NCBI GenBank assembly: GCA_965204235.1
Contig: OZ241979.1
Location: 3,109,902 to 3,173,901 of the forward strand
Reading direction: 5' to 3'
Length of the DNA stretch: 64,000 bases
Origin: an uncultured Candidatus Binatia bacterium
GTDB lineage: Bacteria > Desulfobacterota > Binatia > UBA9968 > JAJDTQ01
Part shown: in pieces, positions 21,063 to 41,126 of the stretch
How positions within the stretch are numbered: position 1 is the stretch's first letter
Layout of the letters: the number at the start of each line of letters is the position of its first letter
Translations under genes and position numbers: made by a program
The notes under the pieces: model-generated
The model's database searches: none
Told to the model about the DNA's origin: nothing
The model's input: only the letters and a program-made list of their open reading frames with translations

Positions 21063-21064
21063 TC

Positions 21065-24183: not shown

Positions 24184-25209
24184 ATGAGCGGGATGAAGTT
24201 CGGCTTGCTGGTGGATTGCCACGTCCGCGAGGGCCGGGGACAGACCCTGGCCTTCGACGAGATGTTCGGGCAGGTGGACGCGGCCGAGGCCATGGGCATG
24301 GACTCCATCTGGATCGTGGAGCACCACTTCCGGCCCAAGGCGTCGGTGCTCTCGGCCTCCATGGCCGTGGCCGGCGCCATCGCCTCCCGCACCGAGCGCG
24401 TGCGCATCGGCACCGCGGTCCAGGTGCTGCCTTTGGGGAACCCCCTTCGCATCGCGGAGGAGGCCGCCACCATCGACCACATGAGCCGCGGGCGCTTCGA
24501 CTTCGGCGTGGGCCGAAGCAGCATCCCGAAGTTCTACGACGGCTTCAACATCCCCTACTCGGAAAGCACCCCGCGTTTCGCCGAGTCCCTGGAGATCGTA
24601 CTGCGGGCCTTCACCCAGGACACTTTCTCCTTCGAGGGGGACTACTATTCGTACCACGACGTCAGCATATCGCCGCGGCCGCTGCAACGGCCTCACCCGC
24701 CCATCTACATGGCGGTGCGCACCCCCGAAGGCTTCGCCGCCACCGCCAGACGGGGCTTCTCCGTGGTGCTCTGGTTCATGGGCGACTACTACGAAGAGTG
24801 CCTGCAAGCCTATCGAGACGCATGGCGGGAGGCAGGCCACGCCCAGGCGCCCCAAATCCAGGTGCGCGTGCCCTTCTTCGTCGCGGAGTCCGAGACCCTG
24901 GCCCGGGAGACCCCGAAAGCCAGCGTGGTCCACGACCTCCACCGGGTCATCGGCGAAGCCCAGATCATGGGCGCAGCCGACCGGGTGGCCAAGGCCCGGG
25001 AGTTCCTGGACGACTACGACGAATTCCTGCGCACCCGGGTGATCTTCGGCACGCCCGAATCGGTCATCCATCGCATCGAGGAGTTCCGCGAGCGCATGGG
25101 ACTGACCGGCCTGATCCTCGACATGAACCACGGCGGCCAGATCCCCCAGGAGCACGTGCTCAACTCCATCCGCCTGCTCACCGAGAAGGTGGCGCCGCGG
25201 TTCGCCTAA
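24184..25209 (+). CDS. LLM-class flavin-dependent oxidoreductase (luciferase-like monooxygenase)
   Basis: 341 aa with the typical LLM N-terminus (…LAFDEMFGQVDAAEAMGMDSIWIVEHHF…RIGTAVQVLPLGNPLRIAEEAATIDHMS…). Confidence 0.8.
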   Translation: MSGMKFGLLVDCHVREGRGQTLAFDEMFGQVDAAEAMGMDSIWIVEHHFRPKASVLSASMAVAGAIASRTERVRIGTAVQVLPLGNPLRIAEEAATIDHMSRGRFDFGVGRSSIPKFYDGFNIPYSESTPRFAESLEIVLRAFTQDTFSFEGDYYSYHDVSISPRPLQRPHPPIYMAVRTPEGFAATARRGFSVVLWFMGDYYEECLQAYRDAWREAGHAQAPQIQVRVPFFVAESETLARETPKASVVHDLHRVIGEAQIMGAADRVAKAREFLDDYDEFLRTRVIFGTPESVIHRIEEFRERMGLTGLILDMNHGGQIPQEHVLNSIRLLTEKVAPRFA

Positions 25210-27875
25210 CCGTTCCATCCGCGGGTCAGGCTCTGCCGTTTCGCCGCGTCGTCGAGCACCCGCGCGCACGACTCCCAGTCCACGCGCCCGACCTCGTGGT
25301 ACCGGAGCTCGAACGGATGCTTGTTCGGAACGCTGTCGATGGTCTGCTTCGCTTGCTCCATCTCACCGAGGGCGACCTCGACCCAGACGTCTTCGAGCGT
25401 GTCCGGCAACTGACCGAAAAGCCGGGAGATGCTCTCCAGGCGTTCCGAGAGTAGCTGGCGCACCCGGTCCTCCACCGAGTTCGCGTAGCGCATGTTGTAC
25501 ACGTCCACCTGGGAACGGGTTTGCCCGATGCGCTGGATCCGGCCCTTGCGCTGTTCGAGGCGGGAAGGATTCCAGGGAAGGTCCAGGTTGATGAGCGTGC
25601 CGAGCCGTTGCAGGTTCAACCCTTCCGACGCCGCGTCCGTGCCGAGCAGCAGGCGTAGTTCGCCCCGGCGCACGCTGTCCTTCAGGGCGTCGCGGCCCCG
25701 GGGCTCGAAGACCCCGCGGCGCATGACCCCCGAACGGCCGGCGCCCGCGTAGATGCCGATGGTTTCAGCCGGAAGCGCCTCCGTGAGTCGATGGGCCAGC
25801 CACCACACCGAGTCGTAGTACTGGCTGAAGACGATGCAGCCGTGTTCCAGCCAGCCTTCGTCCACGAGCAGGCGCACCACCGCGGCGCACTTCGGGTCCT
25901 GGTCCAGGTTCGCCTCCATGGATTGGGCAAGCCCTGACAGCACCCGGCTTTCCTCCTTCGTCAGGGTACGAAGCGGACCGTCCTCGTCGTCATCGTACTC
26001 GTCGCCGAGGTCCTCCCAACCGTCGAGTATCCGGGTGACCGTCAGACGCCCCGCCTCCATGGTACTGCCCATGCGGCGCAGGAGCATGGTGCGAAAGAAC
26101 CCCGTGCTCGCGCGTTGGGCGAGCAACCGGCAGAACGCTTCCGCCTGGGCGTAGGCGTCCTCGAGGAAGGGCGGCAGCACGATGGCGTCCTCGTCCGACT
26201 CGCCGTGCAATCGGACCCCCACCGGGGTCAGGAACGGTTCGCCCGTCTCCGGGTCGATGGAGTTTTCGAGATACTCGCGGGTGCGCACCACGATGGTGCG
26301 GATGTAGGGGTTGTGCTGCTCCACGAAGCGGGCGAACCCGCTCTCGATCCGCTGCCGGTCGGGCGGACGCAACGACTCGACTGCGTTCCCGTGCGCATAC
26401 GCGGCCTCGTCCGGCAGGGAGAGCGAGCGGCGCAGGATCTCGAAATCCCTCCCTTCGGAGCGGGGAGGAAAGGGGTTGCGCATCCAGTCCCAGCACTCGT
26501 GGAAATCGGCCGGCGGCGATGCGTTGCCGAGCAGCAGGTCGAGGGAGGCCTTGGCGTTGCGCCAGCGGCTGCCGGGTGAGCCGAGCACCGCGTGCGAGCC
26601 TCGCGCGAGCGCATCGAGCAGGTCGTATGCCTCCACGGGATGGAGCTGGACCGGGGTGGCGGTGGCGAGCAGCAGGCTCTTGGTGCGGGGCGAGACCTCC
26701 CGGAGGAACTTCAGGAGGTTGTTGGGCTGCGCCGCCCCGAACGCCCCGCGGCCGGAGAGGTTCCGGCGCCGCGCACGGTGCGCCTCGTCCAGGATCACGC
26801 ACTCGAAGCGCATCTCCGCCAGCCGCGCCGCGGCCTCGGCGTTGCCGGTAACCAGGCCGGTGGAGACGATACCCACCCGCCGCGGGCAGCGCCGGATCGA
26901 TTCGGCGCCTGCCCCCGGATGCTCGACCCCGCGCTCGTCCACCCAACCGCGGCCGGTCCAGACCGCTGACGGCAGTCCGAGCAGGGTGTCGAGTTCGTCC
27001 TGCCACTGCCGGAGCAGGGGCTTGGGAGCCAGGACGAGCACCGGCCCATCGCCGACCAGGGCCATGAGTTGCGCCGCCATGGCCAACTGGAGAGTCTTCC
27101 CGAGCCCCACCTGATCGGCCAGCACGAAGCGCGCGCCGTGCGGCCCGCGATGCGCGTCGAAGGCGAGCTTGACGAAATGCTTCTGGTGCTCCCACAGCCC
27201 CACCTCCTTGCGATAGACCGGCGCTTCCACCATGACGGACGCGGGGTCCGGCTCTTCCCGCCAGCGGGCGACGTCTCCCACCAACTCGCGGCGCGACAAG
27301 CGGTCGAGGTCCCGAACGACGAAGTCCGCAAGCCGGACCGCGAAAGGCGACGACCATAGGGCGTCGAACTCCTCCTGGACCCATGCCACGGCTTCCGGTG
27401 AATCGTCCTCCCAGACGATCTCGTAGTTGAGCCGGAACGCCGCCCCGGACTCGTTGGCGCTGCCAAGGAAGGAGGTCGGTCGGTCGTCCGCCAGGATGAT
27501 CACGCCCGCCTTGCCGTGGATGAGGCCGAAGACGTCATCGGGCAGTACGCGGACCTCGACCTTCCCGGAACGCAGGAAGTCGTACAGGCGCTCGAAGCGC
27601 GGCTTGGCGGTGTCACCGAGGTCCTCGGGGCGGGAGTCGCACCACTCCCGGCGCATGGCGGCCTGGGCGGCCCTCGCCACTTCCACGTCGGCGCGCGACA
27701 GCCCGGAATTGCACACCACCCGGACCTTGCCTTCGACGCTCTCCAGCGCCTCGCCCGCCACTTCGAGGATCGAGGACGAGAAATAGCCGGCGATTCGGTC
27801 GTAGCTCTTGGCGCCGGCAAGCCGCGGGGTCAGGAAGGCGGTGTCGAGCGGCTGTTGGCGAGAGGAGTATCGCAT
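25206..27875 (-). CDS. PLD-family nuclease domain fused to a SNF2-family (SF2) helicase; last gene of the defence island
   Basis: 889 aa. N-terminal HKD motif (…LIHGKAGVIILADD…SFLGSANESGAAF…). Then helicase motifs (…LADQVGLGKTLQLAMAA…, …VILDEAHRARRRN…, C-terminal …LLLGTDAASEGLNLQ…, …QRKGRIQRIGQ…). 39-nt gap to the upstream gene. Confidence 0.85.
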   Translation of the reverse strand: MRYSSRQQPLDTAFLTPRLAGAKSYDRIAGYFSSSILEVAGEALESVEGKVRVVCNSGLSRADVEVARAAQAAMRREWCDSRPEDLGDTAKPRFERLYDFLRSGKVEVRVLPDDVFGLIHGKAGVIILADDRPTSFLGSANESGAAFRLNYEIVWEDDSPEAVAWVQEEFDALWSSPFAVRLADFVVRDLDRLSRRELVGDVARWREEPDPASVMVEAPVYRKEVGLWEHQKHFVKLAFDAHRGPHGARFVLADQVGLGKTLQLAMAAQLMALVGDGPVLVLAPKPLLRQWQDELDTLLGLPSAVWTGRGWVDERGVEHPGAGAESIRRCPRRVGIVSTGLVTGNAEAAARLAEMRFECVILDEAHRARRRNLSGRGAFGAAQPNNLLKFLREVSPRTKSLLLATATPVQLHPVEAYDLLDALARGSHAVLGSPGSRWRNAKASLDLLLGNASPPADFHECWDWMRNPFPPRSEGRDFEILRRSLSLPDEAAYAHGNAVESLRPPDRQRIESGFARFVEQHNPYIRTIVVRTREYLENSIDPETGEPFLTPVGVRLHGESDEDAIVLPPFLEDAYAQAEAFCRLLAQRASTGFFRTMLLRRMGSTMEAGRLTVTRILDGWEDLGDEYDDDEDGPLRTLTKEESRVLSGLAQSMEANLDQDPKCAAVVRLLVDEGWLEHGCIVFSQYYDSVWWLAHRLTEALPAETIGIYAGAGRSGVMRRGVFEPRGRDALKDSVRRGELRLLLGTDAASEGLNLQRLGTLINLDLPWNPSRLEQRKGRIQRIGQTRSQVDVYNMRYANSVEDRVRQLLSERLESISRLFGQLPDTLEDVWVEVALGEMEQAKQTIDSVPNKHPFELRYHEVGRVDWESCARVLDDAAKRQSLTRGWNG

Positions 27876-27914
27876 CAGCGCAGCGCGGGCAGAGGCAGGA
27901 AACGGAGCCCCGGG

Positions 27915-28421
27915 TCAGGCGCGGGGCTCGCTCGCAGGAAGGCGTTTTACGTGCGCGTGACTGGCAATGCGCTTCCGATGACAAGCCACCTGGTTTTCCA
28001 ACTCCCGGAAAGCGGTCAATCCACGCAGAAGGCCAAAGTCGCCAATCTGCTCAGCCACAAGCTGTACACACTTGCCCAAATCCCGATGGAAACGTTTCAA
28101 CCGTCGTCCTCGAAGGCCGCTAGCCTGCCTGAGCAAGCCGTGGAGGACCGTCTTGGGATCCGGCAGATTTTCGAGCTCCCTCACCTCCGGCATGGATAGA
28201 CTCTGGCGGCTCGCCGGATTTCCCGCGGCTTTCTTCAGGGCGGATTCGTCGATGAGCAACCACGCTTCCTGCATTCGTACCGGAACCACGCAGACGACCG
28301 GCAGGGTCTTTCCCCTCTCGCTCCGTTCCAAAGCCTTGCGGATTTCTTCCTGCCGTTTCTCCACTGATTCGCCCTCCGCGTCCCGATGCACGAAGAGCAG
28401 GTCGCAAGGGTACAGTTCCAT
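27915..28421 (-). CDS. DUF4276-like protein, partner of the upstream AAA ATPase; possibly N-terminally truncated
   Basis: 168 aa, …TLPVVCVVPVRMQEAWLLIDESALKKAAGNP… resembles the conserved core of DUF4276. Its frame stays open upstream (…IPIQREFSDLRRLRNPPRDLFQRIDKS-M…) with no start codon there, so the N-terminus may be lost. Confidence 0.5.
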   Translation of the reverse strand: MELYPCDLLFVHRDAEGESVEKRQEEIRKALERSERGKTLPVVCVVPVRMQEAWLLIDESALKKAAGNPASRQSLSMPEVRELENLPDPKTVLHGLLRQASGLRGRRLKRFHRDLGKCVQLVAEQIGDFGLLRGLTAFRELENQVACHRKRIASHAHVKRLPASEPRA

Positions 28422-28610
28422 GCTCTTGTCGATGCGCTGAAAAAGATCTCGGGGAGGATTCCGAAGCCGTCGCAGATCGGAGAATTCCCGCTGGATGGGA
28501 ATGCCTTCACAATGCTGGCGCAGCAGCTAGGTGAGAACGGGTAGGAGCGCCCGGTCGGACGAGCCGTCAGCCACCAGCGTAAAGCGCAGTCTTTCCACTC
28601 GACACCGGAT

Positions 28611-30100
28611 TCACGAGCCAAGAGGAAGCAGCAGTTGCTGCAGGTCGTCCCGGTCAACCACTCGCCTCTCCCTTGCTCGTTTCTCTTGCGGACTCATCGG
28701 AAGCACCGGATTCAGATAGGCCAGCAGATCGCCTTTGGCTACAAGGTCGGATTCGCTGCTTCCCTCGGCTCTCCAAGTGTCCGGCAGATAGTGGAACCGG
28801 GCTTCCTTGAAGAATTGTTTCCGACTATCCACGAATTCCATAAGCTTCACGAACACGACGCTGTCTTCCGGAACCTGCAGCAAAACCGCCGCGAGTGTGT
28901 GTTGACGATCACTTGGCGCAGCGGATTGTCCGGTTCTGCCGGTTCGGACGCATCCACGGCAATATCGCGCAGCAATTGCAGGATGGCCGGAATCCGCGCC
29001 GGATGGATGCCGTTTTCCGGTTCTTCCAGACAGAGTACACCCTGGACTTCCGTATCCATCTCCAGCACGGCCAAAGCCAGGAAGCGCAAGGTGCCGTCCG
29101 ACAATGCCCGGGCCGGATGCAGGGTTCCTTCTCCATCCTTGACGTACAGGGTCAGGATTTCCCGTTTCTCATCCCGATCGATGTTGACGTCGTGCACGTC
29201 GTCGATGAGTTCGTGCAGTCGATTGGCGATACGGCCACAGGTCCGCGCTGCGTTTTCCTCCTCCAGTGGACCGTTGTCTTCCCGTCCCGAGTGGTGAGCC
29301 AAGCGGTACAGCGTGGCGGCCAGATGGCTGCCATCCGTCCCCATGCGCGTGGGAGAGGCGAATTCATCCGGCCGCCTGAGCGCCGACGGCTCCAGTTGCA
29401 GCATCCGCCACGCTTCCATTTCCCGGCGAGCGGCCACCACGGTGGGACTCTCCGCCGCGTTGGCCGCGGAAAGGACCGTGCGGGGCAGATTGGCCGCCGG
29501 CCTGCGCAACGGACGACCGCTGCTGCCGCCGTCCTGATGCAAGTTGATGACCCGGATTTCGCCTTCTTCTTCGGTCGAGATGAAATAGGGGGCACGGCGC
29601 TGGCCGCACACCACCGACTTCCGCCAGTCCTTCGCATTGTGAGGAAACGGAAGGTGCTTCCAGGCATCGCGTTGGGCGATGTGGACCAGTTGCTCCTTCA
29701 TGATTTCCAAGGCGCCCGGAGTCAAGCTGTCGCCGGTCTCCTTGTAGGCAAGCTCCAGCGAATAGCGCAGGAACGTAATGCTGGCCTTGGCTTCCTGTCC
29801 CAGATCGTCCACGGCTTTCCCCGGTACGATCATCTCCGCGTCGAAGGACATGCTCTCCCTATAGCGGTCACCGGCACGGTGGAAGAGGTTACGCACGTCC
29901 GCAGTACGGCTGTCCTGGTCGCGCACCGAGGCAGCGGCTTCCATCAACGTGTGACCGGCCAGCGCACTCAGAAAGCGGATCGCGTCGAACAGGTTCGACT
30001 TGCCGGCGCCGTTGGGCCCGATCACGCACGTGAACGGACCAAAGCGCACATCCACGTCCACGAGGTTCTTGAAGCCGGAGACTTGCAGTCGCGTCAGCAT
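28611..30100 (-). pseudogene. AAA_15/AAA_21-type (SMC/ABC-like, OLD-family-like) ATPase, disrupted by a frameshift after the H-loop
   Basis: ORF 28847..30100 carries Walker A GPNGAGKSN, the ABC signature LSDGTLRFLALAVL, Walker B/D-loop VLCLEEPENGIHP and H-loop VIVNTHS. It then runs into …RRFCCRFRKTASCS*. The natural continuation (…LQVPEDSVVFVKLMEFVDSRKQ…) is in the +1 frame (ORF 28611..28883). The shift falls at a GTTTTG T-run near 28872–28885. Confidence 0.6.
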
Positions 30101-30284
30101 GTCCGAATTACCGATCGACGAGTTTCAGCCGTCGTCATCGAGCACACCGCCCAGCCCGCTACGCCCGTCCTCAGCGGCTCGGAACCGCACCCGCGGCGCA
30201 ATGTCCTCCGGCAGTGCGACGGTGACGTTCTCCATGGCTCCAAGGTAGTGGAACACCGGATTTGCGTCAACGGGCGACGGCAGG

Positions 30285-33200
30285 TCAGACATGGTCGTTC
30301 TCCACGGCGCCAGCGACGAGGCGGGCGGCCGCGGCGTCTTCGCGCCAGTGGTTGACTTCGATGGCGGCGAGGTAGCGGAGGATGGCGACCAGCGCCTCGC
30401 GTTGCGGCCAGTAGCCGGACAATTCGGTTCGGAGCCACGTGAGGCTGTCGGCCACCTCGCCGCTCTCCGCCACGCGCCAGACGGCATAGAGGGCGTGGCG
30501 GACGAGGCTGCGCCCGAACGCGGTGTCGCCCAGGTCGCTGCGCTTGAACTCGGAGGCGGTCTTCAGGCGGGTCCGGTTCGCCTTGCCGGTGTGGAGCAGG
30601 TAGCGGTAGTCGCGGACGCCGAAGCCGCGGGCGAACTCCTGATAGACCCCGGAGCGGAAGTCGCCGTGGCGTTCGACGTCAAGGCCCTTGACGTAGAGCT
30701 TTTCCTCGGGGGTGAGCCGACGCCACAGGTAATCCGGCAAGCCTGTGGGGACCAGGAAGTTGCTCGCGGTGCGCACGGCGTCTCCGATGATCTTCTCGAT
30801 GGGGTTGGGTTCGCCGCGGCGCCGTTCCCGCGACAGTTCATGGGATACGTCGATGTCCTCGATCGAACCGTACTGCGTCAGCACCCGGAGCGCCGCGGCG
30901 TAGGCGGCTAGCTGGTAGTCCGCATCGGAGAAGTTCGGGGCCTCGCGGTCGTCGAGTTCCAGCATGGACGCAAGCTGGCGCTCCACTTCGACTCCCACTT
31001 CCTGGGCTACTTCGTCCTGGAACGCCGTCTCCTCGACGGTCTGCCTGCGCAGCACCATCAGCACGGTGCCCTGGACGTAGTTGCCTTCCTTGACACCGAA
31101 CGGCGTCTCCGTCGCAATGGTCCACGCCGCGGTCACACGCAAGCCCGCGGCCCAGAGGATGAGGGTAAGATCGGCCCAGATCGATACGTCCTGGTGGGTG
31201 AACATGACGACCTGGAAGCCGCCGTCCGGCATGTGGGCCGCGAGGTTCCGGTAGCAGTCCACCATGCTGCGCCGGAAGTTCGCGTCCGCACCCCGAACGG
31301 CGAGGGCGCGCTTGCTGTCCGTGTGCCAGTCCCGGAACAACACCGGCAGCCTTTTCTCGTACCAGGCGAGAAAGAATTCGGACAGTTCGTGGTAGTTGAT
31401 TGCATCCGCGTAGGGCGGATCCGTGATCCAGATGTCTGCACGCCTGTCGATGGCGCGTGCATCCGTCGTCTGCAAAGTGTACGGCGCATGAACCGAAGCA
31501 TCGCTTTGGGTGAGAAACCATGAGCTGACGAGCGTGTGAATGCCTCGGCCGCCGAAGGTCATGAGCGTGTTCAATGCTTGATTGCTGAAAGTCTGAATTA
31601 CCTTTTCTCCCGCCTTGTCCGCCCACCACCGGGAGAGCCTGCTGTTCCAATCGGCGGTGCGCCCGAGTCCGAGCAGGCACGCGGCGCCGGACACCGCAGA
31701 GATCGAAGACGTCTCCGATTTCTCGGCCAGTGCTCCGTGGACCAAGAGTTGTCTCGGTGTGAACAAATGATGCCAGTGCGTCCAGCCGCGCTCTCGCATC
31801 AGTCGCGTAGTCTCATCTCCGGGTGTAATCGCCCGATTCGGAATGTAGCCGAGAGCCTGCCATTCCGGGAAGCGTTCTCGAAGCAGCGCGAGTGCCCGTG
31901 CTTCCCGTTCCATGTCGGCGTCTTCGACGGGTTGGTACAGCGTTTCCGGCAGCAACTTCGCAAGCGCCTCGACACGATCGTTTCTCCGAGCTGCCACCTC
32001 CTTCGATTTCCTGAGTCGTTGCGCTGCCGCTATCAACTCGCGCTGCGGGCAATCTGCGCTCTTTTTGGCCTCGAACTCGCGCTGCGCATCTTCGACCGCA
32101 CGGTCTTCGGCCAGCCAGTCGCGCTCGCGCAGATCCTCGACTTCACGTCGCTCGTGAGCTTCGAGCCGTTCGACCAGGGCCGCAATCGCATATTCAAGCT
32201 CAACCCACTCCGGCACCGCTGGCGGCGAAGCATCGGGGGTCTGCGTGCCCTTCGGGGGCGCGGGCCTCCCGCCCGCACCATCCTCAAGCCGGCAGGCCGC
32301 CCGCACCCGCTGCTCCGCCCACAGCAGCGCGGCCAGAGAGGGCAGGCGCCAACGCACGCAGTACAGCCGCTCCTGGAACACGTCGTCCGTCCGGGGTACG
32401 AGGTCGTCGTTCTCCCATTGCCGCAGCCCGCGGCCCCGTCCGCCCTCCCCGCGCCGGTCGCCGCGGATGGCGGTCATCGGGGTGGAGGCATGACAATCGG
32501 GATTCGGACATTCCAGCCGCGACTGCTTCACCGTGCCGGCGCCGCGGGCGGCGGCGAGCGCTTCCCGACCCACACCCGAACGGACGTCGATGGCGAAGCG
32601 CCTTTCCGCCGGTTCAGGCTTCAGCCGCGCCACGGCCCGCGTCTTCTCGCCGATGACCCAGCTTGGCGCGAGCGGCACGCGCCAGCCGCATTCGGGGCAG
32701 GCCGTCTCCGTGCAGTAGAGGAAGGCGTCGGCCCGCCAACCGGCATCGTCGTGCTCAATGCGCCACTCCGTCACTTGGCGGTCCACCGCCTCGAACACTT
32801 CGGTTTGCGCCAGCCGCACGCGCTCGGCGACTTCCTCCCCGCCGCCGACGATGTTCAGCGCGCCCCAGGTGAGCAGGGCGGCCACCGGGTTCAGATCGGA
32901 CCCGTAGGCTTCGCAGCCGAGCCGGGCCGCCTCGAACGGCACGCTGCCGCCCCCGCAAAAGGCATCCCCCACGCGCGGCACGCGCCCGAAGCGGCGCTCG
33001 CCCAGCTCCCGCATCAGTTCGGGCAGGCTGACCGCCTCCGTGCCCAGATGCCGGTTGATGACCTTCCAGGCGTCCGCGGACGGTCCTTCCAGATGCTCGG
33101 GCCTGTCGCACCATTTGAGCTTTTCGTCATAGCCCATGCGGTCGAAGACGATGCGTTGCAGGCGCGCTCGGTCCGCGGCCTTCGTGCCCTTCCGGAGTCT

Positions 33201-33566
33201 GGGCCGGTCAGGTTCGGCGTCGAACGCAAACCACTCGGTCCGTTCCTCCGGCGAGAGCCGCGAATACACTTCCTTGAGCGGAATGTTGCCGCTCTTGCGC
33301 CGCCGCAGCCCCTCCTCGTCCATCGTCAGGAGCGCGAGGAACACCTCCCGGTCCTTCCGCGGATCGTTCGAGGCGGGCATCAGCAGCCCGAGAATGATCG
33401 CCCGCACCATCACGAGCGGCTTCCTGCCCCACCACTTGCCGAGACCGGTCAGGGTCTGGCTGTAGTTCGCCTTGCGCTCCTTATAGCTCTCCTTCGACAG
33501 CCGCGAGACGGGAAATTGCGTCTCGATGAAGGTCAGGGCGTCGGTGAAGGAATGGGGGCGCGTCAT
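30285..33566 (-). CDS. DUF1156-type N6-adenine DNA methyltransferase with Zn-ribbons (COG1743-like)
   Basis: The ATG at 33566 overlaps the upstream stop (ATGA). The ORF-track start at 33905 is spurious. N-terminus TFIETQFPVSRLSKESYKE (DUF1156-like). Zn-ribbons CTETACPECGW and LECPNPDCHAS. Amino-MTase motif IV WITDPPYADAINY. Confidence 0.8.
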   Translation of the reverse strand: MTRPHSFTDALTFIETQFPVSRLSKESYKERKANYSQTLTGLGKWWGRKPLVMVRAIILGLLMPASNDPRKDREVFLALLTMDEEGLRRRKSGNIPLKEVYSRLSPEERTEWFAFDAEPDRPRLRKGTKAADRARLQRIVFDRMGYDEKLKWCDRPEHLEGPSADAWKVINRHLGTEAVSLPELMRELGERRFGRVPRVGDAFCGGGSVPFEAARLGCEAYGSDLNPVAALLTWGALNIVGGGEEVAERVRLAQTEVFEAVDRQVTEWRIEHDDAGWRADAFLYCTETACPECGWRVPLAPSWVIGEKTRAVARLKPEPAERRFAIDVRSGVGREALAAARGAGTVKQSRLECPNPDCHASTPMTAIRGDRRGEGGRGRGLRQWENDDLVPRTDDVFQERLYCVRWRLPSLAALLWAEQRVRAACRLEDGAGGRPAPPKGTQTPDASPPAVPEWVELEYAIAALVERLEAHERREVEDLRERDWLAEDRAVEDAQREFEAKKSADCPQRELIAAAQRLRKSKEVAARRNDRVEALAKLLPETLYQPVEDADMEREARALALLRERFPEWQALGYIPNRAITPGDETTRLMRERGWTHWHHLFTPRQLLVHGALAEKSETSSISAVSGAACLLGLGRTADWNSRLSRWWADKAGEKVIQTFSNQALNTLMTFGGRGIHTLVSSWFLTQSDASVHAPYTLQTTDARAIDRRADIWITDPPYADAINYHELSEFFLAWYEKRLPVLFRDWHTDSKRALAVRGADANFRRSMVDCYRNLAAHMPDGGFQVVMFTHQDVSIWADLTLILWAAGLRVTAAWTIATETPFGVKEGNYVQGTVLMVLRRQTVEETAFQDEVAQEVGVEVERQLASMLELDDREAPNFSDADYQLAAYAAALRVLTQYGSIEDIDVSHELSRERRRGEPNPIEKIIGDAVRTASNFLVPTGLPDYLWRRLTPEEKLYVKGLDVERHGDFRSGVYQEFARGFGVRDYRYLLHTGKANRTRLKTASEFKRSDLGDTAFGRSLVRHALYAVWRVAESGEVADSLTWLRTELSGYWPQREALVAILRYLAAIEVNHWREDAAAARLVAGAVENDHV

Positions 33567-34210
33567 GGGTTTGCCTGCACGAACGGCAAGAGGGAGTGAC
33601 GAATCTCCATCCACCGACCATCTCGTACATGCCCTGTGACGAAGCGCTGAACGACGCCGATGGGCGAATCCACCTGAAGCTCTCCTTGCAACCCAAGGCC
33701 AAGCCGCTTCGTCATCATCGCCGCCTCGATGTGCGAGAAGGCGAAATTCATGTCGCCATCCATGACGTAGCCCATCATGCAGCCAACCGGCAGACCTTCG
33801 GCGTACTTCTCCGTGACGAAGCGCATCATGCCGTCTTCGCCGACGTAGGCGCCCGCTTGCGAACGCTTCGCGCCGTCCGTGCCCGTCACGTTGAGCCGTT
33901 TGCATTCATAGGCGAGATAGGTATTTCGGTCGTTATCGACGATCACGGCGAGATCGACACGTGACGCTCCGGTGAGCGTGCCGCGGGGAGAACGTGTGAA
34001 GGGGTGGAACTGGTACTCGAAGTAGAATTCGTCTCTTGCCTCGGCGTCTCTGGAGAGACGGGCGACCAACGCCACCGTGATCGTGTCTTCGCATGAAGAA
34101 GGCGGCAGATGGGCAATCGCCTGCTGCCAGACCCGTGCGACGCAGTGCAGGAACTTCCAATCGGTGACGCGGAACTTCACCACCCAGCTCCGCCCCTCGC
34201 CGGACACCAT
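33563..34210 (-). CDS. small protein with a PD-(D/E)xK-like motif (putative nuclease), translationally coupled between the two methyltransferases
   Basis: 215 aa. …RVDLAVIVDNDRNTYLAYECKRL… fits the D…(D/E)xK arrangement of the restriction-endonuclease fold. Overlaps both neighbours by 4 nt. Confidence 0.4.
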   Translation of the reverse strand: MVSGEGRSWVVKFRVTDWKFLHCVARVWQQAIAHLPPSSCEDTITVALVARLSRDAEARDEFYFEYQFHPFTRSPRGTLTGASRVDLAVIVDNDRNTYLAYECKRLNVTGTDGAKRSQAGAYVGEDGMMRFVTEKYAEGLPVGCMMGYVMDGDMNFAFSHIEAAMMTKRLGLGLQGELQVDSPIGVVQRFVTGHVRDGRWMEIRHSLLPFVQANP

Positions 34211-34212
34211 CG

Positions 34213-36399
34213 CTAGCGGATCCCCCGTCGGAATTCCTCGATGTCAACCACCACTTGCTCCGCGTCATCCCGCGCCGCGGTGCGCATCCAGAAGCGCAGG
34301 CTGTTCGGTTTGACCATGTACATGTCGTCGCCCGCATACATCCGCAGGTTGGAAACCTGGTGGATGTTTCCAGGAAGCTCGGTGTTCGACTCCCGCGCGA
34401 CCTCCACCAGCAGCCTGCCGACTTCGTTCGATTCTTCCCTGTATTCAACCCGATCCTGCATTGCGCAAAGGCGGAGTCGCAGAACGGCCAGGTCATGGTT
34501 TTTGGCGACAAGGGTTACGCTGACCCGGCTATCCGCCTCCGTCCAATCGTCCAGGGAGGACGTGAGAACCTGCGCGTACTCTCGCCGCTGCTCGTCCGAA
34601 GGTGGTTTCCAGATCCGCGGAAATGCCGATGGTCCGGGTTGAAGGGCAGGAACGATATACTCCCACGTCTCATCGACGACGAGCATCTCCCGTTCCGTCA
34701 GGACGAAGTAATCACAGGCAAGTCGATCTATCTCGTTCAACATTTGGTCCAACAGGTCCGGCGGTTGCATGGGGTTGTCCAACTTCCTGGATGCACCGTC
34801 GATCAGGGAAATCAACCCTCTGGCGGCGTCGTACGACCTTTGCGGTTCGGGCGTTTCTTCCGGCGCGGGGAACGGCAAGTCGAGCAATTGAGCCGGATGA
34901 ACTTCCGGTCGCTCGGCGACTATTGACGACGTGCTGTGAAATGCGTACCAGAACAACAGTTTACTGTTCAGGAGGGCAGCGAGGAGCTTGGCGCGTTCTC
35001 GGCCGGCATCAGGGACAGTTATTGCCTGGATAGCGGCCTGAAATGTGAAGGGCGTCTCCGAGTAGGCGGCTCTCAGCCTTCGGTTTCCGGTGGTTTTGGA
35101 AATCAATACCCGCGGCCCACCAAATCCCTTCTCGAAACCGCGCCGATGGACCGCTTCGTCGTGGCGAGGAGTGAGGCTTTCCAAGTCGGGGGCGAAAATG
35201 CGGAATGATTTCGTCGGCAGAAACGGGTTCGTCGCCACGATTTCGCTCCTGGTCCACTTGTAGCTCGCATCCTTCAAGCGGTCTTCCAGCACGGGCTTGA
35301 ACCCCTGACCGGTCTTCCACGTCGGTTCGGGGTCTTTGCCTTGCTCAGCGTTCGCTCCCCCATGTTGCGCTATCTTGGCGCGCAGCCGAGGATAAGTGGA
35401 AAGGTATCGGAACAGCTTGTTTTCCGGGCTGGTCATCCACATACGCTTGTTGAACTCGAGCGGATCCTTTTCGACCATCACCGTGTTCAGCCGCTTCTTG
35501 TCGGTTTCGTTGATGCTCACGAGGCGCGTGGCGCCGGAATTCGGGCTTGCCTTGGGCGTCCAGTAGTCGAACTCGTAGGGCCTGGCGTCCGTATTGAGGC
35601 CGGCGATGAAGAGGGACGCAGGTCGCACGGCAACACTGAAAAGCTGGAAACGAAGATCCGCGTAGTTGACGATGCGGCGTACCCGAGCGCTCCGGAAAAG
35701 CAGGCTTCTTGCTTCCAGGGCCTTCTTCGAGTGGTTGTGGAGGAAGCTCATTGCAGGAAGCAGGAATGCGATCCTGCCGTCCTTCTTCAGGTGCCGGAGC
35801 GCCTTCCAGAGAAACCCCCATGCGGCTTGCTTGTCTGGCGCCGGGAGACCGTGCCGTTCGCACCAGCCGGCTGAGCCCGCGTCGCTCCTTCGCCACGGCG
35901 GATTGCCGATCACCACGTCGTATTCGGGGCTTGCTTCCATGTGGAAGAAATCCGCCTGGCGCAGGGTCTCGCCCCATAGTGGGGGCAGCAGCTTGCCGCG
36001 TCTCATCAGGCTGCGGATATCGGGAGGGCGCGCCTCTTCCAGGAGTGCGACATAGAGGGAAAACGCCGCCACGCGCACCGCGCTGGCGTCGATGTCCCAG
36101 CCGCATAGCCGGGCGAGGAAACCGCGCAGGCTGTCCCAACGGATGTTCTGCTTCGCTTGGCGATATCGCCACTGCTCGCAGAGACGCTTGAACAGGCACA
36201 CCAGGAAAATACCCGAACCGCATGCCGGATCGAGGAACTTTCCCTTCGTCTTGATGCGCGGGTCGAGAACCTCCCGGTCGTCCCATATCTGGGAGACGAT
36301 GCTGCTCGCCAGATGCATCGGGGTGTGGAACTGGCCCTTCTTGCGCGCTTGGTCCTGCTCGTTCAGGAACTTGTCGTACACGGCGCTGATCAGTTCCAC
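34213..36399 (-). CDS. Eco57I/PglX-like (gamma-class) N6-adenine DNA methyltransferase domain protein; annotated GTG start, true N-terminus probably upstream (see 36390..37292)
   Basis: Motif X-like GQFHTPMHLA. Motif I FLDPACGSGIFL. Motif IV VIGNPPW. Long C-terminal TRD-like region. Its frame is open for more than 40 codons upstream of the annotated GTG start. Confidence 0.75.
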   Translation of the reverse strand: MELISAVYDKFLNEQDQARKKGQFHTPMHLASSIVSQIWDDREVLDPRIKTKGKFLDPACGSGIFLVCLFKRLCEQWRYRQAKQNIRWDSLRGFLARLCGWDIDASAVRVAAFSLYVALLEEARPPDIRSLMRRGKLLPPLWGETLRQADFFHMEASPEYDVVIGNPPWRRSDAGSAGWCERHGLPAPDKQAAWGFLWKALRHLKKDGRIAFLLPAMSFLHNHSKKALEARSLLFRSARVRRIVNYADLRFQLFSVAVRPASLFIAGLNTDARPYEFDYWTPKASPNSGATRLVSINETDKKRLNTVMVEKDPLEFNKRMWMTSPENKLFRYLSTYPRLRAKIAQHGGANAEQGKDPEPTWKTGQGFKPVLEDRLKDASYKWTRSEIVATNPFLPTKSFRIFAPDLESLTPRHDEAVHRRGFEKGFGGPRVLISKTTGNRRLRAAYSETPFTFQAAIQAITVPDAGRERAKLLAALLNSKLLFWYAFHSTSSIVAERPEVHPAQLLDLPFPAPEETPEPQRSYDAARGLISLIDGASRKLDNPMQPPDLLDQMLNEIDRLACDYFVLTEREMLVVDETWEYIVPALQPGPSAFPRIWKPPSDEQRREYAQVLTSSLDDWTEADSRVSVTLVAKNHDLAVLRLRLCAMQDRVEYREESNEVGRLLVEVARESNTELPGNIHQVSNLRMYAGDDMYMVKPNSLRFWMRTAARDDAEQVVVDIEEFRRGIR

Positions 36400-37292
36400 C
36401 GGGATGAACTCGAAGTTGTAGCCCCAAAAACGGAACTGGCTCCTGCCGGATCCATTTCCTCCTTGCCGGAGTGGAAGCGAGCCAGCACCTCCAAGTGGCG
36501 CCGTTGAAGCCCGGGGCCAACGTCGTCAAAGGAACATGGCTTCACGAACAGGTCACCGTTGAAATCGCGGCTGAGGCTGCGGAACAGGCCGTAGAAGGCG
36601 TTGACCTTGTTTTCGTTCAAGATTTCGGCGAACGTGGAAAAGGCGCCGTCAGTGGCGGCCTCGATATATCCTGCATCGATGATCTTCCGATCTTCCAGAT
36701 ACGCGATGAACATCGTCTGCATCAAAAGGGCCTGGGATGCCGCCGGGGCCAAGCCGTAATCCCGAAGCAGGTCGTGCGATTGCTTGAGATTGCCCAGGAG
36801 CACTCCATCCACGCGCTGGTTCGCGTCGAACTTGCCTCCGTGCTCCTTCCAGTACCGGCCGGACTCCATGCCGTAGATCAGGTTTCGCAGTGCGAGCGCA
36901 TCGCTTACCTGGTGGAGCACGTCGATCAGGCAGGTCTTGTCGAAAGTCTCCGTGCTCCTGTCGGCCGGGGTGGCAGCGAGCGAGTAGATTCGGATCGTTT
37001 CGCCGCACACGACGGCGAGAACGCTTGCAAGTCCCTGGTTCCAAAGATCCGAATGAAGGCGTGCGATGGCTGTCGGGTCCATGCTCTCGGTTGCGAAGAA
37101 TACCGCGGTCGGAAGGTGCTGGACGCAGAACACGGCGGCCGCGCCCAAGTCGCGCAAGGCCGTTCGTATCGGCCTCGCGTGTGGGACGTCGTCAACCTCG
37201 GTAGCGTCCTGGTAGAGCTCGGGGGCATGGCGGGCGTCCAGACCCAGGCACTCCTTCCAGTCCGGCGCGAGCTGGTTTTGCAGAGCCAACAT
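36390..37292 (-). CDS. hypothetical protein, probably the displaced N-terminal domain of the downstream methyltransferase (separated by a -1 frameshift)
   Basis: Start MLALQNQ at 37292, 8 nt after the DUF3780-like stop. It ends 10 nt inside the MTase ORF. Both frames are open across 36392–36522, and the protein-like character swaps frame around 36420–36470 (…ARFHSGKEEMD… → …FWGYNFEFIPVELISAVYDKF…). Confidence 0.4.
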   Translation of the reverse strand: MLALQNQLAPDWKECLGLDARHAPELYQDATEVDDVPHARPIRTALRDLGAAAVFCVQHLPTAVFFATESMDPTAIARLHSDLWNQGLASVLAVVCGETIRIYSLAATPADRSTETFDKTCLIDVLHQVSDALALRNLIYGMESGRYWKEHGGKFDANQRVDGVLLGNLKQSHDLLRDYGLAPAASQALLMQTMFIAYLEDRKIIDAGYIEAATDGAFSTFAEILNENKVNAFYGLFRSLSRDFNGDLFVKPCSFDDVGPGLQRRHLEVLARFHSGKEEMDPAGASSVFGATTSSSSRWN

Positions 37293-37302
37293 CCCAGGCA
37301 AC

Positions 37303-38055
37303 TCAGGGGCCGCGGCGGCCTGCGGCGATGATCCCGGGTGGCGCGGCGCCGTCTTCTTCGCCTCGTTCACCGGACCGACGATGCGCGCCGGCAACCGCCC
37401 TGCGCGTCGGCGCGGCGTCCTCCCGGCTCCGGATCCCACTCCCACTCCGGCCCTGGCGCGGGGGTTCCGAACGCTCCTCCGCGGCCGCCAGCCGGAAGAT
37501 GTCGCTCTGCCGATCCTGGCGGTCGCCGGTCACCGGGTTCTCTGTGAGCGCGAAACGCACCGCCTTGCGCCAGCCCTTGTTCCTGCCGTGCAGGGCGTGG
37601 CCGGTGGCGGCGTTGGTCATGGTGAACAGCCACCACCGTTCTTCCGGCGCGAGTCCCAACCAGTTCTTGAGCGCCGCGGGGATGAGCGCCGGGTCGGCGT
37701 CTTCCACGGCCCAGGCGAGGAGCGTCAGTTCCTTGCCCAGCAGGCGGGCGACCGGGATGTCGCCCCGCTTCCAGCGTCCCGGCGGCAGGCCCTGCTTCTT
37801 GAGACGGCGGTTGAACTCGACGCGCACCTCGTCGGCAATGGCGTCCCACTTGGCGCGCGGCAGCGCGGCCCGAAGCCTGGAATCATGAGGGCCGAGACCG
37901 AGGGAGGGAGGCGCGTAGCCCGTCTCGGGATCGAAGCGCAGGTGCTCGGCCACGAGCACGTCCCCACGGACCCTCGAAGGCACGGTCACCACGAAGTGGT
38001 GTTCCGACTCCTCGAACTGAAAACCGAACCCTGCCGGCCTGGAACGGGTCCCCAC
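37303..38055 (-). CDS. small protein in the DUF3780 position of the DUF499/DUF1156 cassette
   Basis: GTG at 38055, 2 nt after the DUF499 stop (the ORF-track start at 38259 overlaps DUF499). About 250 aa (…GFGFQFEESEHHFVVTVPSRVRGDVLVAEHLRFDPETGY…). Assignment is by context, not by recognised motifs. Confidence 0.4.
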   Translation of the reverse strand: MGTRSRPAGFGFQFEESEHHFVVTVPSRVRGDVLVAEHLRFDPETGYAPPSLGLGPHDSRLRAALPRAKWDAIADEVRVEFNRRLKKQGLPPGRWKRGDIPVARLLGKELTLLAWAVEDADPALIPAALKNWLGLAPEERWWLFTMTNAATGHALHGRNKGWRKAVRFALTENPVTGDRQDRQSDIFRLAAAEERSEPPRQGRSGSGIRSREDAAPTRRAVAGAHRRSGERGEEDGAAPPGIIAAGRRGP

Positions 38056-38057
38056 GC

Positions 38058-41000
38058 TCAAGGCTCCACGTCGTTGCGGTCGTATTCCGCCCGGATCTCC
38101 GCCACGTAGTCCAGGAAGCGCTGGCCCGTGTCGTAGCGCACGCGCTTCGCCTCGATGGAGACTTCGCCGTCGGGCACGAGCCCCCTGAGTTGCTCGACCG
38201 TCTGCTCGATCCGGTCGCCGCCCAACTCCACGTCGTCGGAAAGGGAAATCTCGCCCCAAGTCCCGCCGGCCTGAGCCGCGAAGCGCAGTCCGCCCGCGGA
38301 GGCTTCATGCTTCTTCAGCCGGTTGATGAAGCCGTAGGCGTTGCGAGTGGTCTGGAACCGGAACCCGCCGGAGGCAGGACGCCACACCGCGGGACGGGCC
38401 TTGTCGATGGGCTTGGTCTCCCGTCTGTCGGCCATATCGCGCCGGTGGACCTCGGAAGCGACTCCGTCCTTCTCCGCCACCGCGAGCACGAGGCGGGCGC
38501 CCACCGGCGCCGCGAACGGCCCTTCGTACGCGCCGCCGTTGACCTTCGGGTCGGATCCGTCGGTGGTGTAGCGGATGGGCGCGGCCGGGGCGGAGCGGAT
38601 CTCGACCATGCGTCGGTCTCCGTCCGGGTACTCGCGCGATTTCAGCGTGATACGGTTCGACCACTCCACCGGCTCCCCGGTATCGTGCTCGCCCTTGGAA
38701 TCGACCGCGAGGAAGGAGACGCGAAGCTCCGCGGTCTCGAAGTCCGCCCCCTCGACCGCCATCGATGCCGGCGTCGCCGCTCCGCCGAACTCTGCATGGA
38801 TCCGGTCGGCGTTGACGGGAGCAAGCCGCAGCTTCACCTCTCCGGTGTCGTCGTCCCGGGACAACTCCCGGATGCGCACGCTCGTCGCCGGCTTCGGAAA
38901 GGGTCCCCTGTTGACGTAGCTCCCTTCCTCACGCCACAGGTCCTTGTGCAGGCAGTCCTGCTTCATCCGGTCGAGGGCGTCGGGCCGGTGCCACTGCCAA
39001 CGGGGGTTGGACGCGGCTCGGCGCACGACCTCCGTCCACAACATGGACTTCTGGGTGAACAGCCGGTCTTCCACCTTCTTGCGGAAGGTCTCGCTCGCGA
39101 CGTCCGTGGCGTACTTCTGCCGATCCGCGAGCGCCTCCCTCACCTGCTCCTCGCCGTTGTAGCGGTTCTCCTTGAACTCCATGAGGAAGTCCACCCTGGC
39201 CAGCCGGTCCCGGGTGGGGTAGTGCAGCGTGGTGAAGGTCTCGCGGACGGCGCTGTGGAACTGGGCAAGGAAACGCGGCAGGAGCTGGTCGCGCGCCTGC
39301 TGCATCTGCGGGTCGCCGTCGGCCACCCCTTCTTCGTGCATCTCACCGATGATCTGGTTGATCGCCTTCAACTCCCGCGCGCGTTCCAGCAACGATTCGA
39401 AGGCCCGCTGTCCGGTCAGGAAGCAGATGCGGTTCTGGTAGGTGAGCTGCTCGTACAGGACGGCGAGGTCCGGGTGCAGGCCCGCCGGGTGCGGCTCGGT
39501 CACCACCAGCGTCACCCGGTCGGGGTGGACGTCGATCTCGTCCACGGCCGGGAGCGGTTGCAGGCGCTGGTAACACGACCCCTCGACCGGCTCGAAGATC
39601 TCCGTCAGCCGTTCCTTGAGTTCTTTCGTGGCTTGGTCGCGGAGGTAGGCGCCCGCGGTAGTGGTCACCCGGGCGATGAGGTTCTGCACGTTGCGCAGGT
39701 GCAGACGCCCGTCGTTGGTCGTGTGCAGGTACCAGGCCGCGGTCACGAGGCGCGCGATCACCTCGTTCTGCAACTTCGAGAGGTCGCGCCCCGGAGAGCA
39801 CAGGTTGGCGACGACCTCGGGGATGGCGAGCCCCTTGACGGCGTTCGGGACGTTCGCCAGCGAGGCGACCAGGAGCAGCCGCATGACGTCCCTGGCGTCC
39901 TCGCCGCATCCCAGGTTCGCGTCGATGGTCTCGGCCACGGCGTTGCCGCCCGACGCGATGTCGTGGGCGATGGCGTTCTCGAGCGTCGGGTTGATCTGGT
40001 TGATCTCGGTGAGGGTCTCGCGGCTCTCCAGATCGACGTCGTGGGCGGCGACGAGGTAGGGGTCATGGCCGGTATCCCAGATCCGCGACACGACGATCCG
40101 CATCAGGCGGATCAGCCCGCGGGTCTGCTGGAAGCCCTGGTTCTCCCGAAAGCGGCCATAGAGGTCGCGGATGGCGGGATGGAACGGGTACGACTCGGCC
40201 ACCTGGGCGGCGAACTGCTCGGGCGAGGCGTTCGTCACGTCCATCTGCTTCGCTTCGCGCACCGCCTTCGCGTAGCCCTGCGCCACCTCCTCGATCTCCG
40301 CCTCGTCCGGGAGGGCCTCGAAGAGACGTTTGCGGAGGATGTGGTAGAACTCGTCCGTGTTCATGCGGACGGGCTCCAGGTTCATGGCGGTGCGGCCGGT
40401 CTCGGCTTCCAGGTCTTCCAGCGCTGCGACGATCTGCGCGGCCCCCGCGCTGTACGTCGCCTTGAGGTCGGAGATCACCAGGCAGACGTTGCGCAGTTCG
40501 TCCCGCCCGACCGCCACCAGGAGGTTCGACAGCGCGGTGGTGGTGACTGCCGACAAATCCGAGTTGCCGATGCTCTTCGAGGCCGCGTTGACGAAGTAGG
40601 GCGGCAGCTCGTCCAGCATGATGACCAGCGGCTCGCCCTCGAGCAGGTTCACCCAGGCGGTCTGACCCGGCGCGGCCAGGGGCGCGTAGTAGTCGTTGAA
40701 CTGCTCCTTCCTGCCGAGCTGCTCCGCGATGGCGCCCCAGATGCCGAGGGGCGCATCGCTCTCGCGCCCGGAAAAGGCGACCACGCGGACCGGGGCGAGT
40801 TCGGGGTCCGGGGTGTAGAAGCCGCCCATGACCTCGGCCCGGTAACCGGGATGCCCGGCCAGGAGCCCAAGCGCGAGGAGGTTGTGGGTCTTGCCGCCCC
40901 CCATGGCCTGGGTCAGCTTGAAGACGCCTTGCGCCGATTTCCCTTCCAGACGCCGGAACCCCTCGGTGAGCAGGGTCCTCATACCCTCCGTGACGTGGTT

Positions 41001-41126
41001 CTCGGCAAAGAATCCAGCCGGGTCGATGCGGCCGTCGACCAGGTCCGTCAGGTCGAGCACGGTGTCGCGGCGCGTGGGGTCGAAGGCGCTTGGCCGGGGT
41101 CTGCAGGCCTGTTTTACGGTCCGCAC
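38058..41126 (-). CDS. DUF499-type P-loop ATPase (large, about 1020 aa)
   Basis: GTG start at 41126. P-loop LTQAMGGGKTHNLLALGL near the N-terminus. Walker B-like VIMLDELPPYF. Long α/β C-terminal region. First gene of the minus-strand island. Confidence 0.7.
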   Translation of the reverse strand: MRTVKQACRPRPSAFDPTRRDTVLDLTDLVDGRIDPAGFFAENHVTEGMRTLLTEGFRRLEGKSAQGVFKLTQAMGGGKTHNLLALGLLAGHPGYRAEVMGGFYTPDPELAPVRVVAFSGRESDAPLGIWGAIAEQLGRKEQFNDYYAPLAAPGQTAWVNLLEGEPLVIMLDELPPYFVNAASKSIGNSDLSAVTTTALSNLLVAVGRDELRNVCLVISDLKATYSAGAAQIVAALEDLEAETGRTAMNLEPVRMNTDEFYHILRKRLFEALPDEAEIEEVAQGYAKAVREAKQMDVTNASPEQFAAQVAESYPFHPAIRDLYGRFRENQGFQQTRGLIRLMRIVVSRIWDTGHDPYLVAAHDVDLESRETLTEINQINPTLENAIAHDIASGGNAVAETIDANLGCGEDARDVMRLLLVASLANVPNAVKGLAIPEVVANLCSPGRDLSKLQNEVIARLVTAAWYLHTTNDGRLHLRNVQNLIARVTTTAGAYLRDQATKELKERLTEIFEPVEGSCYQRLQPLPAVDEIDVHPDRVTLVVTEPHPAGLHPDLAVLYEQLTYQNRICFLTGQRAFESLLERARELKAINQIIGEMHEEGVADGDPQMQQARDQLLPRFLAQFHSAVRETFTTLHYPTRDRLARVDFLMEFKENRYNGEEQVREALADRQKYATDVASETFRKKVEDRLFTQKSMLWTEVVRRAASNPRWQWHRPDALDRMKQDCLHKDLWREEGSYVNRGPFPKPATSVRIRELSRDDDTGEVKLRLAPVNADRIHAEFGGAATPASMAVEGADFETAELRVSFLAVDSKGEHDTGEPVEWSNRITLKSREYPDGDRRMVEIRSAPAAPIRYTTDGSDPKVNGGAYEGPFAAPVGARLVLAVAEKDGVASEVHRRDMADRRETKPIDKARPAVWRPASGGFRFQTTRNAYGFINRLKKHEASAGGLRFAAQAGGTWGEISLSDDVELGGDRIEQTVEQLRGLVPDGEVSIEAKRVRYDTGQRFLDYVAEIRAEYDRNDVEP

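Follow-up and report, generated by a model that had tools for sequence, protein, structure and literature searches.

The 64,000 nt window analysed here, part of contig OZ241979.1 of an uncultured Candidatus Binatia bacterium, carries a minus-strand, co-directional gene block spanning 41126 to 25206 in the open reading frame (ORF) listing, which we interpret as a Type-2 BREX-related (BR) operon with an intact core, into which two autonomous, co-oriented cassettes have been inserted, three of the four passenger genes bearing private inactivating lesions. We assign this reading a probability of about 0.75. The gene order is DUF499 ATPase, DUF3780, a first cargo interval (slot A), DUF1156 N6-adenine methyltransferase, a second cargo interval (slot B) and PLD-SNF2 helicase-nuclease. 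A preliminary description of this DNA had reported nine packed genes in a single direction; the block and its coordinates stand, but the count does not, as the locus comprises eight genes, three of which are disrupted and had been misread as a result, and one gene remnant:

38058-41126, minus strand: DUF499 STAND/ORC-like ATPase, 1022 aa, an intact core gene (PADLOC PDLC02192, 1.3e-216, residues 1-1021 of 1022).
37303-38055, minus strand: free-standing DUF3780 protein of 250 aa that starts with GTG, the Type-2 BR hallmark (Pfam DUF3780, 6e-49).
34213-37292, minus strand: slot A, N6-adenine methyltransferase-specificity gene of the type IIG/PglX-like kind, encoding about 1026 aa in relatives; here the loss of 1 nt at about 36441 divides it into ORFs 36390-37292 and 34213-36399.
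33563-34210, minus strand: slot A, G5, an intact 215-aa protein with a PD-(D/E)xK restriction-endonuclease fold, conserved as the companion of the IIG-like gene (fold model, invariant triad).
30285-33566, minus strand: DUF1156 N6-adenine methyltransferase, 1093 aa, an intact core gene (PADLOC DUF1156_MTase PDLC02189, 5.9e-283).
30125-30234, minus strand: slot B, ribbon-helix-helix (RHH) gene remnant of 36 codons, sharing 19 of 26 residues with the N-terminus of the RHH_5 protein (80 aa) that lies upstream of HEC-01A in locus L092.
28611-30100, minus strand: slot B, HEC-01A (from 'Hma-embedded candidate 01'), an OLD-family ABC ATPase, frameshifted through the loss of 1 nt at about 28892, with the ORF as written ending at 28847.
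27915-28598, minus strand: slot B, HEC-01B, DUF4276/TOPRIM-like, interrupted by an in-frame TAG at 28527-28529.
25206-27875, minus strand: PLD(HKD)-nuclease/SNF2-helicase fusion, 889 aa, intact, the predicted core effector (PADLOC PLD_Helicase PDLC02193, 5.4e-228, residues 2-887).

Type-2 BR systems are defined by a DUF499 ATPase in which FnIII domains frequently precede a C-terminal RRM, a DUF1156 N6-methyltransferase, a helicase fused at its N-terminus to an HKD/PLD nuclease where a TUDOR domain would otherwise lie, and a stand-alone DUF3780 gene; they have been reported in 1,120 taxa, with the DUF3780 gene in 98% of taxa, and are the sister of Hma, alias Type-1 BR (PMC12839542, NAR 2026). 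All four components are present in the window. The DUF499 ATPase, in which a Walker A motif (GGGKT) can be read, also matches HmaC (PADLOC, 8e-55) and Pfam DUF499 (5.8e-24), while its residues 840-889 match the FnIII-type Fn3_assoc/CHB_HEX_C_1 families. The DUF3780 gene lies directly after it, with a start set from the GTG at 38055 and the 250-aa orthologue in the sister contig L081. Similarly, the DUF1156 methyltransferase matches HmaB (PADLOC, 7e-26) and Pfam DUF1156 (1.8e-21), with FCGGGS and DPPY motifs visible in its translation, and the PLD-SNF2 fusion, which matches HmaA (PADLOC, 3e-31), is composed of PLDc_2 (18-174), SNF2-rel_dom (230-424) and Helicase_C (677-784) domains in Pfam. Sister contigs from metagenome series PANK22-1, whose identity to the window is 99.6% in the flank and 96-97% across the island, together with L082, at 92% identity, allowed the ratio of nonsynonymous to synonymous substitution rates (dN/dS) to be estimated: this is 0.26 for the DUF499 ATPase against L081, 0.25 for the DUF1156 methyltransferase against L082, 0.22 for the PLD-SNF2 fusion against L083, and 0.18-0.26 across the core genes overall. 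Judged by their sequences, the four intact core genes are a copy of the published, DUF499-centred Type-2 BR system, a close relative of Hma. The large proteins do therefore fall within the DUF499 and DUF1156 families in both Pfam and PADLOC searches, the full-length matches support the defence island with a DUF499/DUF3780/DUF1156-methyltransferase/PLD-SNF2 core that had been proposed from the sequence, and the other domain assignments made at that stage were likewise borne out by these hidden Markov model (HMM) searches.

That two foreign modules are nested within this core was also correctly recognised, since the GC content at third codon positions (GC3) is lower in the inserts (0.61-0.78) than in the core (0.82-0.91) or the flanks (0.91), and both modules occur alone elsewhere. 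By contrast, the view that a twice-interrupted cassette was unrecognised, and might represent a previously undescribed multi-component variant, could not be maintained: the core is the published Type-2 BR system, the inserts are autonomous modules, and embedding has itself been described. Embedded genes have been found in 62.7% of 1,485 Hma systems, with 96.7% sharing the orientation of their host (Payne et al., bioRxiv 10.1101/2024.01.29.577857), nucleases and OLD-ABC/TOPRIM genes inside BREX and BR loci have been recorded in 1,242 taxa (PMC12839542), and embedded modules are likewise present in Halomonas Hma operons (PMC11232893). When genomes, one per species, were scanned for the DUF1156 protein, 80 related loci were recovered in which the core order is kept. 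Slot B, the DUF1156-to-helicase interval, is longer than 500 bp in 55 of 72 of these, and slot A, the DUF3780-to-DUF1156 interval, in 22 of 63; double interruption is therefore routine, and many of the related loci have cargo in both slots.

The cargo found in slot B of these loci includes 15 type IIG-like methyltransferases, short pAgo/SIR2-APAZ systems, AriA (PARIS), PDC-M28 and PDC-M03, while slot A of L025 holds a PDC-M41 pair. PADLOC pAgo and Aga_SIR2-PNTD matches fall in 6-7 ORFs, and AriA matches in 5, in slot B of L004, L008, L030, L039 and others, the assignment to loci being by ORF size alone. The slot-B genes differ in the closest core relatives, L023 and L001, and L082, at 92% identity to the window, opens slot B with a different gene after the DUF1156 methyltransferase. 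This gene (6222-6371 in L082) begins MTANNHEADLELEPVDSEREDYESVPPDYQIVTYPADYTLEVLHQMWKSN, which may resemble a DUF262/GmrSD-type N-terminus. Slot-B cargo thus varies even between close strains. It might still be argued that the whole block is a single obligate system of multiple components, previously undescribed and equipped with two methyltransferases and three nucleases, as its genes are co-directional, tightly packed and preceded by a single promoter-like site, and the slot A pair (IIG-like methyltransferase and G5) recurs in the same slot of about ten related loci. We consider this very improbable, given that cargo differs among the closest relatives, even between sister strains at 92-97% identity; that a search for HEC-01 in the 80 loci found none other at E<=1e-8; that both modules are found with no BR genes nearby; that many loci are cargo-free (L009, L033, L049, L062, L066, L067, L076 and L080 among them); that the composition of the inserts is unlike that of the core; and that purifying selection is acting on the core alongside three broken passenger genes.

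Slot A is a two-gene restriction-modification unit, consisting of a type IIG-like methyltransferase and a nuclease of a new BamHI-fold family. An unknown protein of about 300 aa and an Eco57I/PglX-like methyltransferase, originally listed as two genes, are the N- and C-parts of a single broken gene. The upstream part, which appears in the ORF listing as 36390-37445, covers positions 48-239 of the PADLOC REase_MTase_IIG model PDLC03623, and the downstream ORF (34213-36399), which carries the Eco57I/N6_Mtase domains in the HMM search, covers positions 285-1011; the intact L081 orthologue matches the same model from 49 to 1011 (1e-70). The type IIG layout, with an N-terminal domain, a gamma N6-adenine methyltransferase and a target recognition domain (TRD) in one polypeptide, is found in the single-ORF orthologues (L025, 1091 aa; L081, 1026 aa), whereas the window gene is split. 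The lone indel relative to L081, which is 96% identical over 7.8 kb, is the base lost at about 36441 (GGAGGCC in L081, GGA-GCC in the window), and in a three-frame translation the conserved '...GQFRFWGYNFEFIPVELISAVYDKFL' runs on in another frame, upstream of the GTG of the second ORF. Phase variation at this position was considered and rejected, the site being a GG dinucleotide with no repeat tract. A natural split of the gene was likewise discarded: the protein database holds many N-terminal fragments of the family (P0241-P0303), with lengths varying from 170 to 494 aa, and the two split cases inspected (L090 and L091, at 314 + 742 aa or 307 + 500 aa) both come from long-read contigs of 2x coverage. 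Such recurrent split entries are probably the result of assembly frameshifting.

The model of the IIG-like N-terminal domain resembles BpuSI, DrdV, MmeI and PglX, having a restriction-endonuclease-like fold, as in PglX. No invariant D, E or K was found in the beta-strands of this domain (residues ~53-104) when 12 and 25 homologues were compared, and searches of PDB sequences with the single sequence and with a profile matched the methyltransferase core alone, leaving the N-terminal domain with no match. At the other end of the protein, the TRD region (34500-35500) is 14-16% divergent from L081, as against <=5% in the adjoining DNA, and dN/dS in the C-terminal part is approximately 1.07. This TRD divergence suggests specificity switching through recombination or diversifying selection.

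G5, the second gene of the unit, has no HMM match and belongs to no Pfam family, and the 526 homologues identified by protein search are all unannotated. Residues D86, E102, C103 and K104 are invariant, and a confident structure model (pLDDT 88.9) has the alpha/beta restriction endonuclease core fold, in which D86, E102 and K104 form the D...(D/E)xK triad. In three distant contexts containing no BR system (L085, L088 and L089), G5 is found directly 3' of an N6_Mtase/Eco57I gene of about 1036 aa amid housekeeping genes, indicating that the pair is an autonomous module; the same pair fills slot A in the ten or so related loci mentioned above. Cutting is probably done by G5, which would rely on the large IIG-like protein for targeting. 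A bolder proposal is that the pair represents an undescribed two-component restriction-modification architecture, in which a PglX-like methyltransferase-specificity protein, its own nuclease domain degenerate, would bring in a separate BamHI-fold endonuclease whose family comprises >500 unannotated proteins, and that the strain-private loss of three passenger genes next to an intact core, with the nuclease spared, reflects active shedding, for instance through autoimmunity or cost, rather than neutral decay; this combination is put forward tentatively, at clearly less than even odds. As a separate observation, slot B of L003, L005-L007, L010, L015, L018, L029, L037, L042, L047 and L052 (~13100-16800 in most) holds a type IIG-like methyltransferase of about 980-1000 aa, only 27-30% identical to that in the window, with an ORF of about 220 aa after it in most cases, and these may be an analogous pairing of a methyltransferase and a small nuclease.

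Slot B of the window contains HEC-01, an ABC ATPase with a TOPRIM-like partner that was itself defined by its embedding (Payne et al., bioRxiv 10.1101/2024.01.29.577857). Both components were identified, and neither has an intact frame. As written (28847-30100), HEC-01A matches positions 1-387 of 464 in PADLOC PDLC04184 (2.5e-100), as well as Pfam AAA_21/AAA_15; the frame is lost after 'VIVNTHS', with the last ~93 codons gone. With the missing base restored, the product is 496 aa long, matches profile positions 1-417 (1.5e-104) and aligns end to end with homologues of 483-509 aa, the best at 95% identity. At the site of the deletion, L083 and L084 have TCACCGGCG, compared with TCG-CGGCG in the window. 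HEC-01B as written (27915-28421) matches positions 72-205 of 217 in PADLOC PDLC04210 (1.7e-25), and reading the TAG as W extends this to 4-205 (1.1e-29), raising the score from 88 to 102 bits; the Pfam DUF4276 match, at 21-22 bits, is under the 30.2-bit cut-off. The same codon is TGG in L083 and L084 (TGG>TAG in the window). A gap of about 190 nt that had been noted before the DUF4276 gene is accordingly an artefact of the 1-nt deletion in the ATPase gene and the TAG stop in the DUF4276 gene. The similar gap of about 185 nt before the ATPase gene is genuine, measuring 184 nt, but is not empty, as it holds the RHH remnant, an ORF beginning MENVTVALPEDIAPRVRFRAAEDGRS... that represents the truncated N-terminus of an RHH_5-type protein. 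HEC-01 may therefore move as a set of three genes, one of them coding for a small regulator or antitoxin-like protein. It is free-standing in L092 and lies beside a Type-1 BR system in L094, and the dN/dS of 0.20-0.24 in its genes indicates that its decay is recent.

All three broken genes are intact in sister-strain contigs at 96-97% identity, and when repaired they regain full-length matches to profiles or homologues. Comparison with three sister contigs over ~21.6 kb revealed no frame-breaking differences in identified genes beyond the two 1-nt deletions; the other indels are in frame (3 and 6 nt), with the exception of one in a G-run at 5234. This last, a one-base difference in run length relative to L083 (GGGGGG versus GGGGG), is the only other indel that is not a multiple of 3. 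Since the ~10 kb of core is free of lesions and all three fall in the ~5.9 kb occupied by the passengers, genuine inactivation is favoured, and the most likely state of affairs is that it is recent and both passenger modules are dead or dying.

The block has one candidate start site for transcription:

41241-41269, minus strand: promoter-like site (GTGACG-17-TATGAT, TG-extended) lying 115 nt upstream of where DUF499 starts, its position being suggestive only.

This is the sole sigma-70-like match on either strand between 25000 and 41500, where ~1.2 would be expected by chance, and a single transcript from a promoter near 41241-41269 is plausible, if weakly supported. No internal promoter-like match and no convincing terminator at gene ends was found within the block, in scans performing at or below chance level. 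The alternative arrangement, several abutting but independent transcription units with a promoter for each cassette, gains some credibility from the 184-nt spacer with the RHH remnant, which may keep a native HEC-01 promoter, and from the inclusion of ~150 bp of native upstream DNA when HEC systems were cloned (Payne et al., bioRxiv 10.1101/2024.01.29.577857). It nevertheless appears quite unlikely, as every other junction in the block is an overlap or a gap of <=39 nt, the scans for internal promoters and terminators were negative, and 96.7% of embedded genes in the same study share the host orientation.

Based on the literature concerning these families, the DUF1156 enzyme would methylate host DNA as a mark of self, the DUF499 ATPase would recognise unmodified invading DNA, with DUF3780 as a possible modification reader, and the PLD-SNF2 fusion would translocate along unmodified DNA and cut it. 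The slot A unit could add a second specificity, the large protein targeting and methylating and G5 cleaving, while HEC-01 in slot B might act as a back-up effector.

A number of points weigh against this overall interpretation. The first concerns the lesions: each frameshift drops one base of a two-base run (GG or CC), and the two 1-nt deletions could be assembly errors. Taken to its conclusion, this would make all three lesions artefacts of sequencing or assembly, with both embedded modules functional in the living strain, an idea to which the splitting of the same IIG family in 2x-coverage long-read contigs and the further 1-nt difference in the G-run at 5234 lend some support. We judge it unlikely, because the lesion in HEC-01B is a substitution, which is not the usual type of error, because the remaining indels over ~21.6 kb are in frame or in that one G-run, and because all three lesions are confined to passenger DNA. 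Secondly, the C-terminal fragment of the IIG-like protein, whose GTG overlaps the upstream stop, could still be made, in which case slot A would not be fully dead. The strongest form of this argument has the split gene working as two polypeptides, an N-terminal domain and a methyltransferase-TRD fragment starting from the GTG at 36399, with slot A as an active restriction-modification unit. The frameshift does lie in the linker between the N-terminal and methyltransferase domains, the overlap of the downstream GTG with the upstream stop (GTGGAACTGA) would permit translational coupling, and G5 is intact, differing from L081 by 3 substitutions only. Against this, 12 of 12 aligned orthologues are single polypeptides of ~1000-1120 aa, and the conserved 'WGYNFEFIP' just upstream of the GTG would be missing from both fragments; we give this option as little weight as that of artefactual lesions, and retain recent inactivation as the preferred explanation.

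The other objections concern function and expression. An intact G5 beside a broken methyltransferase would be harmless only if G5 depends on the large protein, and this dependence is inferred. The promoter scan count is no better than chance. No experiment on any Type-2 BR system is described in PMC12839542 or PMC11232893, such that the mechanism is extrapolated from BREX and Type-1 BR/Hma, and in the latter only the helicase-nuclease HmaA has been shown to defend, the methylation effect of HmaB having gone undetected (PMC11232893). HEC-01 likewise gave no protection in its sole published test, an Escherichia coli assay (Payne et al., bioRxiv 10.1101/2024.01.29.577857).

The core, HEC-01 and the phenomenon of embedding have already been published, and the locus establishes no new class of defence system; what remains of most interest is the G5 family and the private decay of both passengers. 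G5 belongs to an unannotated nuclease family always found alongside a PglX-like methyltransferase, making it a testable candidate restriction enzyme. The locus as a whole is a clean natural case of 'guilt by embedding', with a four-gene scaffold and two inter-gene slots acting as exchange points for defence cassettes, and the sister-strain contigs display cargo replacement, hypervariation in methyltransferase specificity and fresh passenger inactivation within a few percent divergence.

The block is bordered at the helicase end by a plus-strand luciferase-like monooxygenase gene (24184-25209) and at the DUF499 end by a minus-strand Amdase/Asp_Glu_race-type gene (41318-42109). No tRNA gene, sought as a mark of an island boundary, was found in the whole 64-kb window. 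Between the Amdase-like gene and DUF499, L081 has an extra 1.06 kb (1855-2915 in that contig), encoding a DUF7662 gene and a PIN-domain fragment, which is absent from the window at 41294-41300; the upstream edge of the island is therefore variable between strains. Elsewhere, the window contains a CRISPR-Cas island at 8436-21890, with 50 copies of the repeat CTCCTAACCCCTCATGGGGAACGGTCAC between 8563 and 11728, the terminal copy being degenerate. Its identified genes are as follows:

12153-13169: Cas1.
13127-13792: Cas4.
13677-15659: Cas3.
16356-17525: Csc2/Cas7d-like.
20269-20979: Cas6.

Further, unassigned ORFs of 232 and 965 aa are present, and the island looks type I-D-like. Its GC content is lower, at 0.55-0.64, and L083 lacks the entire block, the sequence at ~21890 in the window being joined directly to that at ~8436. 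A short REP-like repeat (CGTTCGTCCTGAGCGTAGCGTAGCAAA and variants) lies at the junction of this island, at 8308-8367, and has a relative of ~72 nt at 43479-43550.

Compared with characterised and predicted systems, the closest counterpart of the locus is the Type-2 BR system as represented by the PADLOC models DUF499, DUF3780, DUF1156_MTase and PLD_Helicase (PDLC02189-02193). The same four components are found in the same order and orientation, with FnIII-like matches before the C-terminus of DUF499, DUF1156 at the N-terminus of the methyltransferase and HKD/PLD at the N-terminus of the SNF2 helicase; the core does not differ in any respect, and the cargo that this copy carries in both inter-gene slots is common according to PMC12839542. 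Hma, or Type-1 BR (Payne 2021/2024; PMC11232893), shares three homologous proteins and the habit of harbouring embedded defence cassettes, but its helicase has a C-terminal PD-(D/E)xK (NOV_C) nuclease instead of an N-terminal PLD, and it has no DUF3780 gene. The slot B cassette resembles HEC-01 in that a DUF499-type system hosts an ABC ATPase of the OLD family together with a small DUF4276 partner that is TOPRIM-like, with HEC-01A and HEC-01B as the best PADLOC matches; it differs in that both genes are broken and the upstream RHH gene has been cut to a remnant. PARIS (AriA/AriB) is functionally comparable, and HEC-01 is probably a PARIS-like back-up effector. The large slot A protein belongs beside the type IIG/IIL enzymes MmeI, BpuSI and DrdV and the BREX protein PglX, its N-terminal domain being devoid of a conserved D...(D/E)xK motif, as in PglX; whereas classical IIG enzymes need no partner nuclease, the IIG-like gene always has a separate BamHI-fold nuclease gene after it. 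That nuclease, G5, shares its fold with the BamHI/BglII/BstYI/OkrAI family of type IIP enzymes at a sequence identity of just 6-9%, and, unlike them, pairs with a IIG-like methyltransferase of ~1030 aa rather than with a small type II methyltransferase.

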